Below, one piece after another: positions 33,068 through 54,534 of a stretch of 64,000 bases of DNA. The position numbers and the translations under genes were made by a program. Source of the DNA: Candidatus Thorarchaeota archaeon (GTDB taxonomy: Archaea > Asgardarchaeota > Thorarchaeia > Thorarchaeales > Thorarchaeaceae); the NCBI GenBank assembly GCA_029855935.1, contig JAGSHN010000025.1:147135-211134 (forward strand). Direction: 5' to 3'. The first letter of the stretch is position 1. Every line of letters starts with the position of its first letter. The notes beneath the pieces are model-generated. The model was given only the letters and a program-made list of their open reading frames with translations, had not been told where the DNA came from and searched no databases.

Positions 33068-33246
33068 GTCATACTCCTCCAGTCACGGTTCATGCTCTCG
33101 ACGCGCCCGACGGGACCTCTGCGTCATCGTTCTCTCGCTGATATGGCTCAATGTATCACATCCAAGCAGTACATCCGTGTAACACTCAAAAGGAATTCGA
33201 CAGAGGATACTTGTGGTCAATAGCTGCGGCACTGGAGGCCCGCCTG

Positions 33247-34458
33247 TTGGACGCAAAGAGCTTGTACATCATAAAGAGAGAGAGTGGCGTGTGCCTTTAT
33301 CACCGCGACTTCAAGGAGCCTATGTTCGATCCACACCTCATATCCTCATTCATCGCTGCGATGACCTCTTTCTTCACGGAGTCAAACTACTCCGTGATGT
33401 CGACAGCACGTGCGTTCGAAGGGGCCGACTACAAGATCGTTCTAGAGTTTGGAGAGTGGACCGTCGGAGCGCTGGTTGTGAACAAGGACACTGAGGCGCT
33501 CCGCGAGAAACTCAGGGCAATCATCCAGGAGTTTGAGAAGCAGTTCTCCATTCTGCGCTACATTGACCTTGACCTTGCAGTCTACACCAGGTTTGAGAAG
33601 ACTGTGATGAGCGAGTTCATCTTCAACGAGATCACGCCAGAGACAATCATCCGCAAGAAGTTGAACTGGGACCTTATCACGGACAATCCCGACGTGAGGT
33701 CTTTCCTGCAGCTCCTGCCAGAGAAATGCTCCGTGAGGGACGCGGCTGAGTTTCTTGAGATGCCCGTGGAGGTTGCAATGAAGCTGACGGCTGAGGCCCT
33801 GTGGGAGAGAGCTATCACAGTCTCAGAGCCAGTCCGACCCGACGACATATTCTCAGCGACAGTGCGCGGCCTCATAGGCGGGCAGACGGATGACGTTTCT
33901 CCGGACACCGCCCGTGCCATCAGGGAGCTCGATGGTGAGACACCTCTGGCCATCGCGGCAGAGAGGGTGAAGACTTCTGATCTTCAGAGGTTCCTCGAGG
34001 AGGTCGCAATGCTCGCACGCCGGAGAGCCATTGAGAGAGTCTCGCCATCGCAGACAGCCATGATACTGTGGACCTCTCTCATTCAGCAGCTGCTCAACAT
34101 CGGTGCCAAGATTCTTGGTACTGAGAGAACAGCCCGCGTGTTCACCGAGGCGCGTCGCGAACTGCTGGGCGTCTATCCGTGGCTGGCCTTTGTAGACCTT
34201 GAGAGAGAAGTCGATGTCGACATTCGAAGTGGCCTGATTGCCTCTGCTGTGAAGGGAGAGATCTCACCAGTGATAGTCAATGACGGGTTCAGGGCATTGA
34301 CGCAGTTCTTCACAAAGCGGCTGAGTAGGTATGTGAATATGAAACGGGTCAATGAGGCTATTCTCACCGTGAAGGACACAATGGAGAAGGAATTTCCGAC
34401 ACGGTGCTACGACATCGAGTGGGAACTCCTCAAGGTGAGCGAGGAGTCCGTCATCTAA
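33247..34458 (+). CDS. Longin-like domain protein with C-terminal winged-helix repeats
   Basis: LYIIKRESGVCLY...DPHLISSFIAAM, a longin-type N-terminus homologous to the cytoplasmic domain of 47958..53264. TTG start with a GGAGG RBS. Confidence 0.65.
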   Translation: MDAKSLYIIKRESGVCLYHRDFKEPMFDPHLISSFIAAMTSFFTESNYSVMSTARAFEGADYKIVLEFGEWTVGALVVNKDTEALREKLRAIIQEFEKQFSILRYIDLDLAVYTRFEKTVMSEFIFNEITPETIIRKKLNWDLITDNPDVRSFLQLLPEKCSVRDAAEFLEMPVEVAMKLTAEALWERAITVSEPVRPDDIFSATVRGLIGGQTDDVSPDTARAIRELDGETPLAIAAERVKTSDLQRFLEEVAMLARRRAIERVSPSQTAMILWTSLIQQLLNIGAKILGTERTARVFTEARRELLGVYPWLAFVDLEREVDVDIRSGLIASAVKGEISPVIVNDGFRALTQFFTKRLSRYVNMKRVNEAILTVKDTMEKEFPTRCYDIEWELLKVSEESVI

Positions 34459-47957: not shown

Positions 47958-50900
47958 ATGAAACGCGCCCTCATCGTAGCCACGGTCCTCGTCTTGGTCA
48001 TGGTACTGGCACCCGTCCAAGAGAGTCCAGTCAGAGTGCTCCCAAGTAAGACCATTCCGGCCATAGTACCACAAGGCCGAGGAATGGAAAAGGCAGTCGG
48101 CTCCGCTGGCGGCCAAGGACAGCCTACTCAGGCAATCGAGTATTTTGCAACACAGATGACCTCTCAGAGAGTGAGCATCATGAACTCCTACTCGAATACC
48201 TCATACCACAGCGGGGTGATTGACCTGTCCGGACATCAGATCTCCGGCTGGACACTGTACAGGGTCACAATGGATGTTTCCAACATCACCGCCGCACCAG
48301 AGAGGGAGTCCGTGACAGACCCCGACCCCGCACAGAACACCGTCGGCAATGTGTTCAGGATCTACTACGACTCCGACACTGCGCTGACGACCGACGCACT
48401 GGCACAGGGCTTCTACTCCGACCAGCCCTTCGATGGCGCGCTCGTCAACTACTCCATCCGGTACTGGACGCTCATCTACAACCCTGCGACCTATGGGACA
48501 GCGTACTTTGTGGTGCGCTCCGACTACTCGGACAGCACGAGCAACGTCACCAACCCCGTTGCGGTGCAGTATGTCACGACCAACACCACTGCGAACATCA
48601 CCTGCTCCCTGAACCTCCTCAATGCCTCCACCACGTACTACGCCCTCATAGATGGCGAGTCTCTGCACTCCGCCTTTGGAGTATTCCCTGACATCATGTG
48701 GCACTATCAGTCCAAGGCGACGGACACCCTCGACAGCAGGAAGCACCTCCGCGGAGGTGGCTGGCCTCAGATCAACTCATATGACGCGTACCTGCTGTAC
48801 ACGTTCATCCCGTGGAACAGGACGACAGGCACGCCCCTTGACCTGACGGGTCGTCCCGACCAAGTGGACCTGCGGGCAAACGGCACTCTGCTGAGCGCGC
48901 CCGAGGCGGGCGCGTCGTCAACCCCTGACTGGGAGTTCACCTCTCCTACGGGAGAGAACATCACGTTCATCCGGTTCACGAGTAACCAGTCGGTCTACGT
49001 CTTTCACGACCTGACGCTGTGGTATCGCAGGATCACCAATTCGGACACGATATGGAGCGTGAGTAGTCCAGGGGGCAGCGTACAATGGAATGCAACAATG
49101 GCCGTGAGCTATCCCTCTGTACCTAGCAAAACGGGGCAATATGTCAACCTCTCCGTTCCTGCAGATTGGGATGCAACAGGTCTGTATGAGCAGTCCGCCC
49201 CAGCAACTAATCACACGCAGTTCGATCAATACGGGACGACGGTGGTTGCAAGTTCAATGTCGGATGGCACCTGGACTCTTGTTTCGTCGGCACCGAACTA
49301 TGTGGCGTCAATCGACTCGGTTTCGGAGGCTGTGATAACAAGTAATGTCACAATCAGGAACTACATTCAAGACTCCTCGTCCGTGAATGCCTCCACAGGA
49401 AGCACTAACCTGACGGTATCAAAGACGGGTGCCACGGTGTGGGCGCCTCAGAATGAAACAGTGATCGATGGTGTCACCACCTACGTGTGGGTCATCAGCA
49501 ACTGGACGACGGAAGGAGGCACATACCTTGTTGAGGTCTACTGGGCCAATGGCACAGAGGCTGGATTCCGTTCTGTGGAGATACACGTATACATCCCCAC
49601 GTCACTGTATGCCACTACACCCACCATATCTGCCTACGTGGACAGCTCTTTTGACATAGAGGTGTTCTTCAACGACACCTTCACTCCGGAGGGGTTGAAC
49701 GGCACACGAGCAACGGTTCAGTACTCCTTTGACGGCGGGTCGAATACAACGATGGGTGACCTTGGCAATGGCACGTGGACCGCCACTGTGTCGACTGTAG
49801 GAATGAGTCCAGGGGACTATGAGGTCACAGTCTTTGGGACTGGTAGCTACCTTGAGAATCATAGCATAGTCATAGATGTCACACTCGTCTATTCCACGGC
49901 ACCACTGGAGATCACGTGGACCAACGGAGACAACATCACCTACTACCAGACTACGACTCTTCAAGTCAACTACACTCTCCAAAATGGTACGGCGGTCAGT
50001 GGAGCGTGGGTAAATGTCACGATTGGAGGAACTACGTGGAACCTCACGTACAACGGCCTCCTTGGACTCTACGAGATTCAGCTGAATGGTAGCGACCCGG
50101 TTCCAGGAATCGGCACATACAGCGTCAGCGTCTCAGCCTGGAGAGTAGACTACGAGTCCCAGACAAATTCCACACTGACGTTCACCATCAGACCCGAGCC
50201 CACGAACATCACAGTGTCGTGGACATCCGCAACCTTCGACTGGACAGACTCAAGAACCCTAGTTGTGAACTACACGGACTCGTATGGGACGCCAATCTCT
50301 GGTGCAACACAGCTTCAGGTCCTTGTCAATGGCACGGAATACTCACTTCAGCCCTCAGGAAATGTCTATCAGATAGTGTTCAACAACTCCTTCGATCTTG
50401 GTCATCATATTGTATCGGTCAACATCAGCAAGTATGGGTATGTTCCCGGCACGCAGGAGGGCATTACCTTTGACATCACAGAGACCGTCACAACCCTCAC
50501 GGTGACGTGGTTCCCAGCCGATGTGGTCGTCCCGTATACGAGTGACCTCGTCTTGACTGTCGACTACTACTATGCTGGCGGGGATGTGCCCGCCACCGCT
50601 ACTGTGAACGTCAGTATTGACGGCAACAGGTATAACCTCACATATGACGGAGCAGTCTGGAGCGTCGCGATACCAGCAAGCAACCTCGGGTTCGGGCAGT
50701 TCAATGCCACCGTGTTTGCGTGGCTGTACGGCTACGAGGCAAGAACAAATGTGACCTACAATGTGACCGTCGTAGTCGCGACCCTCACCATCTCCACAAC
50801 CTGGACATCACTGGACCTGTACTACACACACCAAGGACCACTCAATGTGACCGTCACCGACCAACTCGGCTCACCGGTTTTCGGGGCCGAGGTGAACGCC

Positions 50901-53264
50901 TCATATCGCGGGACCAACTACACTCTTACCTCCGTCGACGTCGGAGTATATTCGATCACATTCAACGGCACCGATGGGCTCGGGACGTTCCAGATACAGA
51001 TCACCGTGCGAAGATATGGCGTGTTCAACACGACAAGAGACCTGACACTGAACATAGTCGAGACCCCAACGACTATGTCCATTCAAGAGATCCAGTACCT
51101 CTACAATGGGACCGCTGGCAACACCCTCTATCACGATGGAAGCGTTGAGATTCGCGTGTCCGTGCAGGATGTTGACGGACTGGGCGTCGATGGCCTTGTC
51201 GTCAACGTCACAATTGGCGGAGATACTTGGCCGCTCGCACCCCAGGGCGGAGGGTTGTATACAATCACTTTCCAAGGAGATGCTCTTGGCGTCGGCACCC
51301 ATGACTTCACGGTGGCGGCAGACACCTATGGCTACGAGGGAATTTCACAGTCTGACCAGATAGTGGTTGCAGCAGTTCCAACCACCGTGCTGGTGACAAG
51401 TGACGTACCAAGCGTGATAGTGATCAATGCTACTGCCGTCTTCACAATACGGTACGTGGACGCGCACACTCTGGCTCCTATTGCTCCTCAGTCTGTGACT
51501 GTGGACTGGGTGGGAATGCACGACTATTCTGTGACGGGCGACGGGTACGAGTTCAACATCTCGACCCTGATGGTACCGCTGGGGGACAACATTCTCACTA
51601 TCACCTTTGCGCTTGAGAACTACACTAATGCTCAGTACATTCGTGTCGTGAACGTACGTGCTGCATTTACGCTGTTCACGGCCGCTGACAGTCATACCGT
51701 ACCGCAGAACGAGACTGAGGTCTTCACCACAACATACTACGACATCGACCATCAGCGCCCGATTCGTTCTGCGAACGTCACTCTCGCAATCGAGGGTACT
51801 GTATATCCCATGGTCCACGTTGGAGAGGGAACGTATCGTGCTGAGGTATGGGTCAGGCTTGATCCTGGGACGTACACCATCACATTCCACGCCGAGGCGA
51901 CGGGTTGTGCTGCAAACTCCACCACGGTCACACTCACCGTGACCGCAAAGCGTGCTGTGGTGTTGGAGGTACAGGTACCGGAGAACGCTGTTCAGGGCTC
52001 TTCAATCACTGTCAGCGCGACATTGACCGATGAAGATGGCAATCCCATTGTGGGTGCTACCATCATCTTCGAGGTGACTGCTCGTTTCGACAACGGTAGC
52101 GAGATAGCTCAGGTACTGAGCGCCACGACCAATCCCGACGGCTATGCTAGTCAGGCCTACCAGGTGCCGCAGGCCGCCACCGAGCTGGTAGTAGAGGCGA
52201 CATTCAGAGGAACGTATCTCTATTGGAGCGCCTCCGTTCATTCACAGGTCATTCAAGTACATCCACCGGGGCTCAGTGAGAACCTAGTACGTACAGTGCA
52301 ATTTGGGTTACCATTCATCCTCCTTGTGGGAGCCGCCTACCTAGTCTACACCAAGAAGCACAGGCCGAGCAGGGAGCGCAAAGAGAAACGACTGCGGGAA
52401 CAGTACGAGAGATTCAAGGAACTATGCACCCTGAGACACTTTATGGCCGTCTACCGAGATAGGGGTACCTGCGTGTTCTACTACCCGTTCACGGAGGAGA
52501 GGATTCAGCCTGACCTGATCAGTGGGTTCATCACAGCGATAACAACAGTCTACGGTGAGATCAAGGGCGATGGCGTACAGGGCACGCTCGAGGAGATTCA
52601 GTACAAGGGACTGATACTCAACGCGTACAGTGGGAAGTATATCCTTGGAGTAATCATAATGGAGGGAGAGATGACCGGGTTCCTCAGGGACAGACTAAGA
52701 TTCTTTGTGGACATATTCGAGTCGCAGTACGAGGACATCCTGAAGGACTGGAGCGGCTGTGTTGACGACTTTGACGCCGAGTGGGTTGTTTCCACGCTTC
52801 ACAACGCGATCAACTACGACTGGGCCTTGCCTCATACTCTCAACAGGGCGGCCAAGACGAAGGGCGTGGAGAGGAAGGTTGTCGGGATCATAGCAGAACG
52901 ACTGAACGAGAGAGGAGAGTTCCACATCAAGGACATCCTGCCCGATGTCGCACAGAAACTGAAGGTGTCGGAGGAGGAGGCCCTCAACATTCTTCTCAAG
53001 ATGCACGATGAGGGCATCATTCAACCCATCAGTATCAGTACAATCGTCACTCGCCAAGGCCTCGGTATCCCAGGAGAGGGCGAAGGGGAGGCGCTGAAGA
53101 TAGTTCCCCCCGAGAGCGAGAACACTGAGCAGGAAGAGGAGCACAGGACGACGGAGGAGGACACCGAGAGCGAGCCTCGTGAAGATGATGCCGAGCAGTT
53201 CATTGAAGAGGTGGAACGCCTCCTGAGAGAGAAGTCCGACAATGACGAACAGCAGACTGACTGA
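47958..53264 (+). CDS. Giant single-pass surface glycoprotein: Ig-like repeats outside, longin-like plus winged-helix domain inside
   Basis: Signal peptide; many NxS/T sequons; roughly 100-aa beta-rich repeats (D..G.PI.GA.V...G.Y.I.....G.Y...V.A...GY); TM helix FGLPFILLVGAAYLVY; basic stop-transfer; then GTCVFY...PDLISGFITAI. Confidence 0.85.
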   Translation: MKRALIVATVLVLVMVLAPVQESPVRVLPSKTIPAIVPQGRGMEKAVGSAGGQGQPTQAIEYFATQMTSQRVSIMNSYSNTSYHSGVIDLSGHQISGWTLYRVTMDVSNITAAPERESVTDPDPAQNTVGNVFRIYYDSDTALTTDALAQGFYSDQPFDGALVNYSIRYWTLIYNPATYGTAYFVVRSDYSDSTSNVTNPVAVQYVTTNTTANITCSLNLLNASTTYYALIDGESLHSAFGVFPDIMWHYQSKATDTLDSRKHLRGGGWPQINSYDAYLLYTFIPWNRTTGTPLDLTGRPDQVDLRANGTLLSAPEAGASSTPDWEFTSPTGENITFIRFTSNQSVYVFHDLTLWYRRITNSDTIWSVSSPGGSVQWNATMAVSYPSVPSKTGQYVNLSVPADWDATGLYEQSAPATNHTQFDQYGTTVVASSMSDGTWTLVSSAPNYVASIDSVSEAVITSNVTIRNYIQDSSSVNASTGSTNLTVSKTGATVWAPQNETVIDGVTTYVWVISNWTTEGGTYLVEVYWANGTEAGFRSVEIHVYIPTSLYATTPTISAYVDSSFDIEVFFNDTFTPEGLNGTRATVQYSFDGGSNTTMGDLGNGTWTATVSTVGMSPGDYEVTVFGTGSYLENHSIVIDVTLVYSTAPLEITWTNGDNITYYQTTTLQVNYTLQNGTAVSGAWVNVTIGGTTWNLTYNGLLGLYEIQLNGSDPVPGIGTYSVSVSAWRVDYESQTNSTLTFTIRPEPTNITVSWTSATFDWTDSRTLVVNYTDSYGTPISGATQLQVLVNGTEYSLQPSGNVYQIVFNNSFDLGHHIVSVNISKYGYVPGTQEGITFDITETVTTLTVTWFPADVVVPYTSDLVLTVDYYYAGGDVPATATVNVSIDGNRYNLTYDGAVWSVAIPASNLGFGQFNATVFAWLYGYEARTNVTYNVTVVVATLTISTTWTSLDLYYTHQGPLNVTVTDQLGSPVFGAEVNASYRGTNYTLTSVDVGVYSITFNGTDGLGTFQIQITVRRYGVFNTTRDLTLNIVETPTTMSIQEIQYLYNGTAGNTLYHDGSVEIRVSVQDVDGLGVDGLVVNVTIGGDTWPLAPQGGGLYTITFQGDALGVGTHDFTVAADTYGYEGISQSDQIVVAAVPTTVLVTSDVPSVIVINATAVFTIRYVDAHTLAPIAPQSVTVDWVGMHDYSVTGDGYEFNISTLMVPLGDNILTITFALENYTNAQYIRVVNVRAAFTLFTAADSHTVPQNETEVFTTTYYDIDHQRPIRSANVTLAIEGTVYPMVHVGEGTYRAEVWVRLDPGTYTITFHAEATGCAANSTTVTLTVTAKRAVVLEVQVPENAVQGSSITVSATLTDEDGNPIVGATIIFEVTARFDNGSEIAQVLSATTNPDGYASQAYQVPQAATELVVEATFRGTYLYWSASVHSQVIQVHPPGLSENLVRTVQFGLPFILLVGAAYLVYTKKHRPSRERKEKRLREQYERFKELCTLRHFMAVYRDRGTCVFYYPFTEERIQPDLISGFITAITTVYGEIKGDGVQGTLEEIQYKGLILNAYSGKYILGVIIMEGEMTGFLRDRLRFFVDIFESQYEDILKDWSGCVDDFDAEWVVSTLHNAINYDWALPHTLNRAAKTKGVERKVVGIIAERLNERGEFHIKDILPDVAQKLKVSEEEALNILLKMHDEGIIQPISISTIVTRQGLGIPGEGEGEALKIVPPESENTEQEEEHRTTEEDTESEPREDDAEQFIEEVERLLREKSDNDEQQTD

Positions 53265-53381: not shown

Positions 53382-53759
53382 TTGCCTTGGAACATCGAGA
53401 ACTACTACATATTGGGCGGGCGCGTGCTATGCATTGAGATCACCATTCCCCTGATTGACTTCATCTACATCAACATAGACGATGTCAAACAGGCATGGAT
53501 TGACCTTCTTCGAGAGGTTGTCCAGGAGGAGCCGGGGCTGGAAGTATCGTGGGAGATGGTCCCGAGAGAGAAGGACGCACTGGTCACTATCCGCATAGCC
53601 AAAAAGGGAGAACTGGAAAGATTCACCAGCGGAGAGATCTCAAGGGCACTGGGCGTAACAGATGCGCTCGCAGCGGAGGAAGAGAAGACTGCATCTGGCA
53701 AGAAGTCCACGAAGAAGAAGAAGACAGCAGCCGCACGTAGGAAGACATCCAAGAAGTAG
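53382..53759 (+). CDS. Hypothetical protein with a Lys-rich C-terminal tail
   Basis: Gene-like ORF filling the gap; the TTG start at 53382 is uncertain. Confidence 0.55.
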   Translation: MPWNIENYYILGGRVLCIEITIPLIDFIYINIDDVKQAWIDLLREVVQEEPGLEVSWEMVPREKDALVTIRIAKKGELERFTSGEISRALGVTDALAAEEEKTASGKKSTKKKKTAAARRKTSKK

Positions 53760-53823
53760 GGTCAGCGCAGAACGGTGTGTGGAGTGTCCTGCAAAGGGAC
53801 TGACAAAGGGTGAGGACAGTCTG

Positions 53824-54534
53824 ATGAACAGGACAGATGTCATTGCAATCTCTTCAGTCGTCGTCATCATCCTCTACTGGATAGTCACGCTGATTGTTCC
53901 GACCATAGTGAGCCCAGTCGTGACCTTGTACCACCTGTTGATTGAAATTGCTCTTGCGATGGGCTACACTGGCGACTTCTTTGTCTGTCTTGTGGGCAAC
54001 GCCACTGTTCTTGTTCCCTTCCCATACCTCAGCATTCCGTTTGTCCTCGGCGGCCTGACAGACTCTTCAGGAGCATACCTCTTCGACCCGTACCTTGTAG
54101 GAATAGTGGGCGGAACCGGCGCACTCATAGGCGAGATGACAGGGTACCTAGCAGGCTATGTCGGAGGGGAGCTGGTGGAGGAGGACCGTCGGTCGGTGCT
54201 CAGAGAGATGGCGGAGGCACATCCGTGGGCCACCCCCGTGATACTGTGGCTCCTCGCTGTCACTCCTCTCCCTGATGATGTTCTCATAGTGCCACTCGGA
54301 GTCTCCCGCTACTCGTGGTGGCGTGTTGTGATCCCACAGTTCGTAGGGAAGACCATGTTCATCACAGCTGTTGCCATTGCTGGAAGGCTCGGGCTCAGCT
54401 GGGCCGATCAACTGGTGGGAACAGTTGCGTCAGGTGGCGTTGTCGGAAGGTCAATTGAGGCAATGGGCCTCATTACTCTCGTAGTCGTCATCTACCTGCT
54501 GGTCAGTCGCGACTGGATGCCGCAGACGCGATAG
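53824..54534 (+). CDS. DedA/VTT (SNARE-associated) domain membrane protein
   Basis: GALIGEMTGYLAG, TPLPDD and GK motifs; hydrophobic profile. Confidence 0.85.
   Translation: MNRTDVIAISSVVVIILYWIVTLIVPTIVSPVVTLYHLLIEIALAMGYTGDFFVCLVGNATVLVPFPYLSIPFVLGGLTDSSGAYLFDPYLVGIVGGTGALIGEMTGYLAGYVGGELVEEDRRSVLREMAEAHPWATPVILWLLAVTPLPDDVLIVPLGVSRYSWWRVVIPQFVGKTMFITAVAIAGRLGLSWADQLVGTVASGGVVGRSIEAMGLITLVVVIYLLVSRDWMPQTR

Follow-up and report, generated by a model that had tools for sequence, protein, structure and literature searches.

A longin and winged-helix module tethered beneath a giant predicted surface glycoprotein of Thorarchaeota and other Asgard archaea

Longin and roadblock dimers serve as platforms for small GTPases, and the roadblock, longin and TRAPPC3 proteins of Asgard archaea form dimers like those of eukaryotes (Tran et al., PMC10933270). 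The partners of these regulators cannot be read from operons, and pairing them by genome layout has proved difficult (Tran et al., PMC10933270). Most Thorarchaeota metagenome-assembled genomes (MAGs) encode NPRL2-like longin families, for which fusions to two-component domains have also been described (Liu et al., bioRxiv 10.1101/2020.10.19.343400), and in longins of the GTPase-activating protein (GAP) type strand beta2 begins with a characteristic GP motif (PMC12290439). Here we describe a giant protein of a Candidatus Thorarchaeota archaeon (GenBank assembly GCA_029855935.1) encoded in a 64,000-nucleotide stretch of contig JAGSHN010000025.1 (positions 147,135 to 211,134), hereafter the window. 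Its gene lies at 47958..53264 of the window on the forward strand (+) and forms one uninterrupted open reading frame (ORF) of 1768 aa, which we read as a surface glycoprotein of type I that crosses the membrane once and carries a longin and winged-helix module in the cytoplasm. A model working from the letters alone (the sequence-only reading) had described the product as an adhesion receptor with an Ig-like ectodomain, one transmembrane (TM) helix and a cytoplasmic longin plus winged helix, regulating small GTPases by heterodimerisation with a soluble longin protein encoded at 33247-34458. We find that the giant protein is the known Asgard longin and winged-helix module, here tethered under a surface glycoprotein. 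Within the literature library that was searched, no paper described a membrane-tethered longin architecture with a giant ectodomain.

The strings quoted in the sequence-only reading are present in the 1768-aa ORF, and its assignment of the C-terminal domain to the longins held up in structure comparisons. The cytoplasmic module (aa 1478-1705, 228 aa) was modelled with AlphaFold2 (AF2) on a 45-sequence alignment, and the model reached a predicted local distance difference test (pLDDT) value of 86 and a predicted template modelling (pTM) score of 0.81. It runs from an N-terminal helix through a beta-beta-alpha-beta-beta-beta-alpha core and more helices to a beta-alpha-alpha-alpha-beta unit, with strands at model residues 15-22, 27-33, 67-72, 75-81 and 85-92 and helices at 41-58, 97-119 and 130-141. 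The longin-fold domain, aa 1491-1621 (52428..52820, +), was recognized by this model, VIA-align and Foldseek. Foldseek matched it to AP sigma subunits, zeta-COP, TRAPP Bet5/Trs23, Fuzzy, VAMP7 and Sec22b, the AP sigma subunits and zeta-COP being the best matches. When the domain was compared with 48,161 chains by VIA-align, the top 26 rows were all longins, led by synbindin (Z 12.3), Fuzzy (12.1), VAMP7 (12.1) and the Lokiarchaeota Roadblock-Longin protein 8yqg (12.0), and Sec22b was matched at Z ~12. In a second VIA search 8yqg_A reached Z 12.5 over 131 aligned residues (rmsd 2.8 Å), and each of the 50 top rows was a longin (Z 10-12.5).

Roadblock, LAMTOR and MglB chains scored below the longins (Z ~8.5-9.2), and the model contains the C-terminal helices of a longin, so that the module does not belong to the Roadblock class. 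The Roadblock/LC7 model PF03259 did not match the giant protein, the 14 Robl_LC7 matches of the genome lying elsewhere, and the Pfam scan of the protein gave no Synaptobrevin or SNARE match. No Pfam longin model (PF13774 Longin, PF19036 Fuz_longin_1 and others) matched the giant protein at E<=1 or the 45 modules at E<=0.05, and the longin assignment therefore holds at the level of the fold only. A sequence-profile search of the Protein Data Bank (PDB) with the cytoplasmic module likewise returned nothing significant.

The longin domain is followed directly by a winged-helix-like domain packed against it (aa 1626-1700; 52833..53057, +), modelled as beta-alpha-alpha-alpha-beta with pLDDT >90. 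This order is that of the Asgard NPRL2-like architecture, and it was recovered both in the model and by hhalign. Aligned against ten soluble paralogs, the module gave a probability of 99.7% (E=6.7e-26) over residues 14-214, that is, over longin and winged helix together, and aa 1626-1700 aligned in the profile-profile comparison with the first winged helix-turn-helix (wHTH) of the paralogs. With the soluble protein named in the sequence-only reading, the cytoplasmic part gave a BLASTP match at E=1e-9 over 278 aa, and the paralogy that had been claimed between the two is thus real. Other evidence on the winged helix was of lower significance: HTH_22 and NirdL HTH matches were sub-threshold, an MCM winged-helix match was weak, and the only structural row was 6ec8_A (VIA Z 9.4 over 80 residues). 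The linker residues W121, G123, F128 and L147-P148-H149 are conserved, and longin and winged helix were modelled as one unit at the pTM given above. The module is the best-conserved part of the protein, with 48-64% identity compared with 34-46% for the ectodomain head and 29-48% for the ectodomain repeats.

Hydropathy placed this module on the inside of the cell. A signal peptide (aa 1-22; 47958..48023, +) opens with MKR and a hydrophobic run (hydropathy peak 2.26, aa 1-25), a peak common to most complete homologs of the giant protein. The single further span is a TM helix at aa ~1446-1467 (52293..52358, +), the sole hydrophobic segment between ectodomain and C-terminus. The sequence after the TM helix is KKHRPSRERKEKR; a basic juxtamembrane segment with the N-terminal helix of the module (HRPSRERKEKRLREQYERFKEL; helix at model residues 2-12) occupies 52359..52427 (+). 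In 33 homologs the TM helix is kept ~55 aa ahead of the longin domain. The giant protein has 56 NxS/T sequons ahead of the TM helix, against 17 +/- 3.4 expected by shuffling, and 0 behind it; in 33 complete homologs, 32-85 sequons fall outside and 0-3 inside. Because sequons occur on the N-terminal side only and there is a single TM helix, the protein is of type I and its C-terminal part is, as had been supposed, cytoplasmic and not extracellular. Signal peptide, one TM helix, positive-inside flank and N-side-only sequons are together the features of a type I single-pass glycoprotein, and from the sequon counts the protein is probably heavily N-glycosylated.

An exhaustive HMMER search with aa 1478-1705 collected 558 representative clusters, mostly proteins of 1000-3000 aa with the module near the C-terminus. 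Related loci were found in ~60 Candidatus Thorarchaeota MAGs, where the module is 50-64% identical, and in Promethearchaeota (Loki-type) and Helarchaeota, where it matches at 27-33%. Full-length orthologs from Thorarchaeota MAGs measure 1475-2123 aa and share the layout of the giant protein. A census of the architecture, as proposed in the sequence-only reading, showed the layout to be widespread in Asgard archaea. In a 400-genome sample of the phylum, at a match threshold of E<=1e-12, 254 of the 400 genomes matched. The family to which the window belongs contributed 68 of its 85 genomes (E 1e-64 to 1e-102) and a second large, more distant Asgard family 121 of 135, mostly in open frames of 1200-2300 aa; several other families in the sample had no match with the query used. 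In a phylogenetic tree, 45 receptor-type modules fell on one side of a branch (SH-like approximate likelihood ratio test, SH-aLRT, 97) and the 21 other longin-family ORFs of the genome on the other, the 45 modules having been picked as best matches to the giant protein and the root not being known. This topology is consistent with an origin of the receptor-type modules from one old fusion.

The ectodomain of ~1420 aa consists of a head of ~520 aa, eight tandem repeats of ~95 aa and one Big_1/Invasin_D3-like Ig domain. The head (aa 23-560; 48024..49637, +) is conserved among Thorarchaeota orthologs and rich in Trp, Asn and Tyr; searches with aa 40-560 gave no Pfam match in 27 orthologs, no PDB-profile match and no Atlas match. 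The repeats (aa 561-1337; 49638..51968, +) are beta-rich, and a hidden Markov model trained on one of them recovered eight full copies spaced ~100 aa apart. They have weak Invasin_D3, Big_1 and CarboxypepD_reg matches in Pfam and are otherwise similar only to each other. The membrane-proximal domain (aa 1347-1427; 51996..52238, +), of Big_1/Invasin_D3/MG4 type, lies right at the Pfam cut-offs: Invasin_D3 scored 33.7 bits (cut-off 33) when the piece was scanned and 27.1 bits in the whole protein, MG4 scored 28.1 bits against a cut-off of 24.7, and Big_1 stayed under its cut-off. The Ig-like ectodomain of the sequence-only reading can therefore be kept for the membrane-proximal ~870 aa, where the repeats and the borderline Invasin_D3/Big_1 matches make it a reasonable label for the stalk; it has no such support in the ~520-aa head, which had no match. 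Orthologs vary chiefly in the length of the ectodomain.

Behind the winged helix the protein ends in an acidic and probably disordered tail (53058..53264, +) with 26 D/E against 6 K/R in 68 aa, which includes the peptide DAEQFIEEVERLLREK. Model, paralog alignment and composition agree with the earlier description of a winged helix and an acidic tail following the longin. The tails of orthologs vary in length and are mostly acidic. Comparison of the Thorarchaeota tails revealed a terminal helix motif, FIEEVERLL in the giant protein (53199..53225, +), with the pattern F[VIL]x[DE]VExL[LM]. Of 60 tails, 54 contained the motif and four others had near variants; its median distance from the C-terminus was 21 aa, 11 tails carried two copies, and none of 200 shuffles produced it. 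This conserved terminal helix, FVxDVExLL, is a new detail of the giant protein. FIEEVERLL also fits [DE]xxxL[LI], the eukaryotic acidic dileucine pattern; this fit is short, and only an amphipathic docking helix may be meant. A MIM1-type (ESCRT-III) reading of the helix was dropped, since its positions depart from the MIM1 consensus. Loki-type homologs are without the motif and have instead a tail of ~200 aa made of TPR/MIT-like repeats. Five such tails (L092, L094, L095, L098 and L099) matched designed CTPR proteins at E=6e-8 and Vps4 MIT domains at E~0.2, and the Pfam MIT model reached 20 bits, under its cut-off. These tails could point to binding of ESCRT-III or of TPR ligands.

The genome has 22 longin-family ORFs, including soluble longin and winged-helix proteins. 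One of the soluble kind is the protein at 33151..34458 (+), which falls outside the receptor clade; its start is probably the TTG at 33247, orthologs in five genomes aligning only from residue ~28-33 on. These orthologs are single copy and ~50% identical. Four paralogs of 350-387 aa (L015, L018, L022 and L023) consist of a domain of ~six TM helices (four to six hydropathy peaks) and a C-terminal longin; they had no Pfam match and are, by prediction, a second kind of membrane-tethered longin in the genome. Two paralogs of 650 aa (L010 and L011) combine TPR repeats with a C-terminal longin, and L021 (C29:16623-17534) joins a longin to a V4R domain related to TRAPPC3/Bet3. In two others, L025 (C25:26350-28299) and L026 (C11:17947-18831), the longin is fused to a GTPase domain of Arf/Roc/Ras type. 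The longin ORF L027 (C25:24572-26269) lies 81 bp upstream of L025. Matches of paralogs to Fuz_longin_1 and HTH_NPRL3 were sub-threshold.

Directly downstream of the giant gene is a small gene with a TTG start (53382..53759, +), conserved in position and encoding an alpha/beta core of ~97 aa with a Lys-rich tail that is present in some orthologs. It adjoins the giant gene in 57 Thorarchaeota loci, which covers all those for which sequence beyond the giant gene was available, and is single copy in the genome. Its AF2 model is a beta-beta-alpha-beta-beta-alpha sandwich (pLDDT 74.5), for which the best VIA score was Z 6.3 to generic two-layer alpha/beta domains; with no Pfam match either, the protein was assigned to no family or fold. 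The gene was limited to the family of the window (68/85) and a sister family, and was found in 0 of 314 genomes elsewhere in the phylum; this Thorarchaeota-specific downstream gene is a new detail. Mismatches in the co-occurrence of the two genes were few and at contig edges, and one genome has the pair 668 kb apart. Since the region as a whole is syntenic, however, adjacency is weak evidence of partnership. A DedA/VTT gene follows the pair in 49 Thorarchaeota loci. In the window the longest ORF for this DedA/VTT-domain membrane protein (53662-54534, +) shares its first 98 nt with the small gene, and its true start is probably further downstream. A search of sequencing runs listed no RNA run, the sole match being a hydrothermal-vent metagenome from which this DNA may itself derive.

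We propose, with about an even chance of being right, that the giant protein represents in Thorarchaeota a family, spread across Asgard archaea, of surface glycoproteins of type I with a cytoplasmic longin and winged-helix docking platform. Outside the cell, the conserved head would be carried on a stalk of Ig-like repeats. Inside, a rigid longin and winged-helix unit would stand ~25 residues from the membrane, followed by the flexible acidic tail and, at its end, the conserved amphipathic FVxDVExLL helix. The unit is a membrane-tethered copy of the soluble NPRL2-like longin and winged-helix proteins expanded in the genome. It is most likely a docking platform that would form homodimers or pair with a soluble member of the longin family. 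Such pairing would couple where the surface protein sits, or how it clusters, to the network of longins, roadblocks and small GTPases, with the terminal helix acting as a second docking or autoinhibitory element. Information could travel outside-in, as contact sensing, or inside-out, in placing and anchoring the surface protein. By analogy such a signalling mechanism is plausible, and a link to GTPases is suggested only by how longins and roadblocks behave elsewhere and by the two GTPase-fused paralogs; the genome encodes at least 24 small-GTPase domains of Arf/Ras type and 14 Roadblock domains.

Several observations weigh against this proposal. The GP motif of GAP-type longins is missing: G26 is present in 45/45 modules, but no module has P at position 27, where T occurs in 30 of them and V, L, M or I in the others. 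No Arg is >=80% conserved across the 45 diverse modules, R25, R38 and R102 being conserved among Thorarchaeota orthologs only. With neither the motif nor a family-wide Arg, the longin domain is unlikely to be a GAP itself, and judged from these residues the module is more likely a non-catalytic platform than an enzyme. The giant gene sits in a conserved housekeeping block (nitrilase, DUF2299, DedA/VTT, thiolase, acyl-CoA dehydrogenase) and not in a signalling operon, the 211-kb contig carries no small-GTPase gene, and a GTPase gene lies within 8 kb at only 1 of 75 homologous loci. Dimerisation, adhesion and glycosylation are features that we infer. Of the receptor design of the sequence-only reading, the single TM helix, the cytoplasmic longin with its winged helix, the acidic tail and the paralogy to soluble longins were all recovered, and so were a type I surface topology and an Asgard origin, whereas the regulation of GTPases was not, in view of the single GTPase-bearing locus and the missing GP motif.

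Some of these observations are also what one would see if the giant protein were purely structural, an S-layer-like or glycocalyx component of the envelope whose module serves solely for anchoring or positioning, for example on cytoskeleton or protrusions, with no GTPase signalling. It is single copy and near-universal in its family (68/85 genomes), it lies in a conserved housekeeping neighbourhood with no signalling genes linked, and in its great size and wealth of sequons it resembles the surface glycoproteins of archaea. A simple anchor would, however, need neither a conserved longin and winged-helix unit nor a terminal motif, and the module is better conserved than the ectodomain and has relatives fused to GTPase, TPR and V4R domains; we regard a structural role as possible but rather unlikely. 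The terminal motif raises another explanation, in which the protein is a cargo for sorting or trafficking and its [DE]xxxLL-type helix is read by a longin-fold adaptor, or docks back onto its own longin domain, to control delivery, turnover or polar placement. AP sigma-containing hemicomplexes do read acidic dileucine signals, AP sigma subunits and zeta-COP headed the Foldseek matches, and 54 of the 60 Thorarchaeota tails keep the motif close to the C-terminus, within acidic sequence that otherwise varies. The match to [DE]xxxL[LI] is nevertheless short and maybe coincidental, and the longer conserved pattern resembles a generic amphipathic helix; Loki homologs have TPR/MIT-like repeats in its place, and no adaptor complex is known from Thorarchaeota. 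We regard a cargo role as improbable. We hold a bidirectional or outside-in receptor to be just as improbable, one in which contact by the glycosylated head would cluster the modules and recruit soluble longins together with Arf- or Rag-like GTPases to the membrane at that spot, the LL helix being read by a longin-fold adaptor or, in Loki-type relatives, by the TPR/MIT-like repeats. Were it true, the protein would be a prokaryotic forerunner of the eukaryotic coupling of receptor, adaptor and GTPase and of the recognition of cargo signals.

Two narrower models fared worse. In the sequence-only reading the giant protein heterodimerises specifically with the 33247-34458 protein to regulate a small GTPase. 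The two are homologous over longin and winged helix, the soluble protein is conserved and single copy, and eukaryotic longin regulators do work as heterodimers (PMC12290439). Yet there are 22 candidate partners, among which this protein is not the closest paralog. In the window the two genes are separated by 13 kb with unrelated genes between; the distance between their orthologs is 19-33 kb in four other genomes and ~610 kb in a closed chromosome, and no GTPase is linked. The specific pairing thus found no support, and we consider this model very unlikely. The winged helix could also be that of a membrane-tethered transcription regulator, ToxR-like or released by proteolysis, and prokaryotes can use membrane-bound wHTH regulators. 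The basic helix and wing of ToxR/CadC-like proteins were not found here, however: the third helix has a net charge of -3 (median -1 over 45 modules), with no conserved K/R in this helix or in the wing across the same modules, which argues for protein binding over DNA binding. In addition, the same winged helix follows the longin in soluble paralogs resembling protein-protein modules of NPRL2 type (bioRxiv 10.1101/2020.10.19.343400), and binding of DNA by the giant protein seems to us scarcely credible.

What the many longin, roadblock and small-GTPase genes do in Asgard cells without obvious endomembranes is an open question of eukaryogenesis. The giant family fixes the address of one longin module, at the inner face of the membrane under a large surface glycoprotein, an address that Thor- and Loki-type lineages have both kept.

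Among known systems, the soluble NPRL2-like proteins of Asgard archaea (asCOG families; Liu et al., bioRxiv 10.1101/2020.10.19.343400) resemble the module of the giant protein in both domains, in phylum and in the expansion of the family. They occur in soluble form or with two-component, TPR, V4R or GTPase domains as fusion partners, whereas the giant protein is tethered behind an ectodomain of ~1420 aa and a TM helix; it has only one winged helix, its acidic tail bears a terminal motif, and it belongs to a clade of its own. The best structural match, the Lokiarchaeota Roadblock-Longin protein (PDB 8yqg), is also an Asgard longin and a dimer in the crystal according to the title of the entry, but it is only 11% identical to the module, soluble, fused to a roadblock and without ectodomain or TM helix. 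The fold is shared, at Z 10-12.3, with TRAPPC4/synbindin, Bet5/Trs23, the first longins of Fuzzy, Mon1 and Ccz1, the N-terminal domains of AP sigma and mu, zeta-COP and the SRX domain of SRalpha, eukaryotic platforms that are dimeric and hold small GTPases at membranes (PMC10933270). Their identity to the module is 7-13%, and none belongs to a surface protein that spans the membrane; partners, lipids or GTPases bring them to membranes instead. In the GAP-type longins (FLCN, NPRL2, SMCR8/C9orf72) and the GP-motif longins of Asgard archaea (PMC12290439), the longin is likewise followed by further domains including winged helices, but the GP motif is missing here, no Arg is conserved across the family of the giant protein, and Z to GATOR1 and FLCN chains was ~8.6-8.9. 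The longin SNAREs VAMP7, Sec22b and Ykt6 are membrane proteins with the same fold (Z ~12), in which an N-terminal longin precedes the SNARE motif, a C-terminal anchor ends the chain and an ectodomain is absent; the giant protein has the reverse order, with the longin after the TM helix. By analogy only, integrins, IgCAMs and cadherins, the single-pass adhesion receptors of eukaryotes, are likewise type I glycoproteins: a stalk of Ig or FN3 repeats is joined by one TM helix to a cytoplasmic portion that must act via bound partners. There is no homology to them, and where they have a short linear tail that binds adaptors, the giant protein has a folded longin and winged-helix module.

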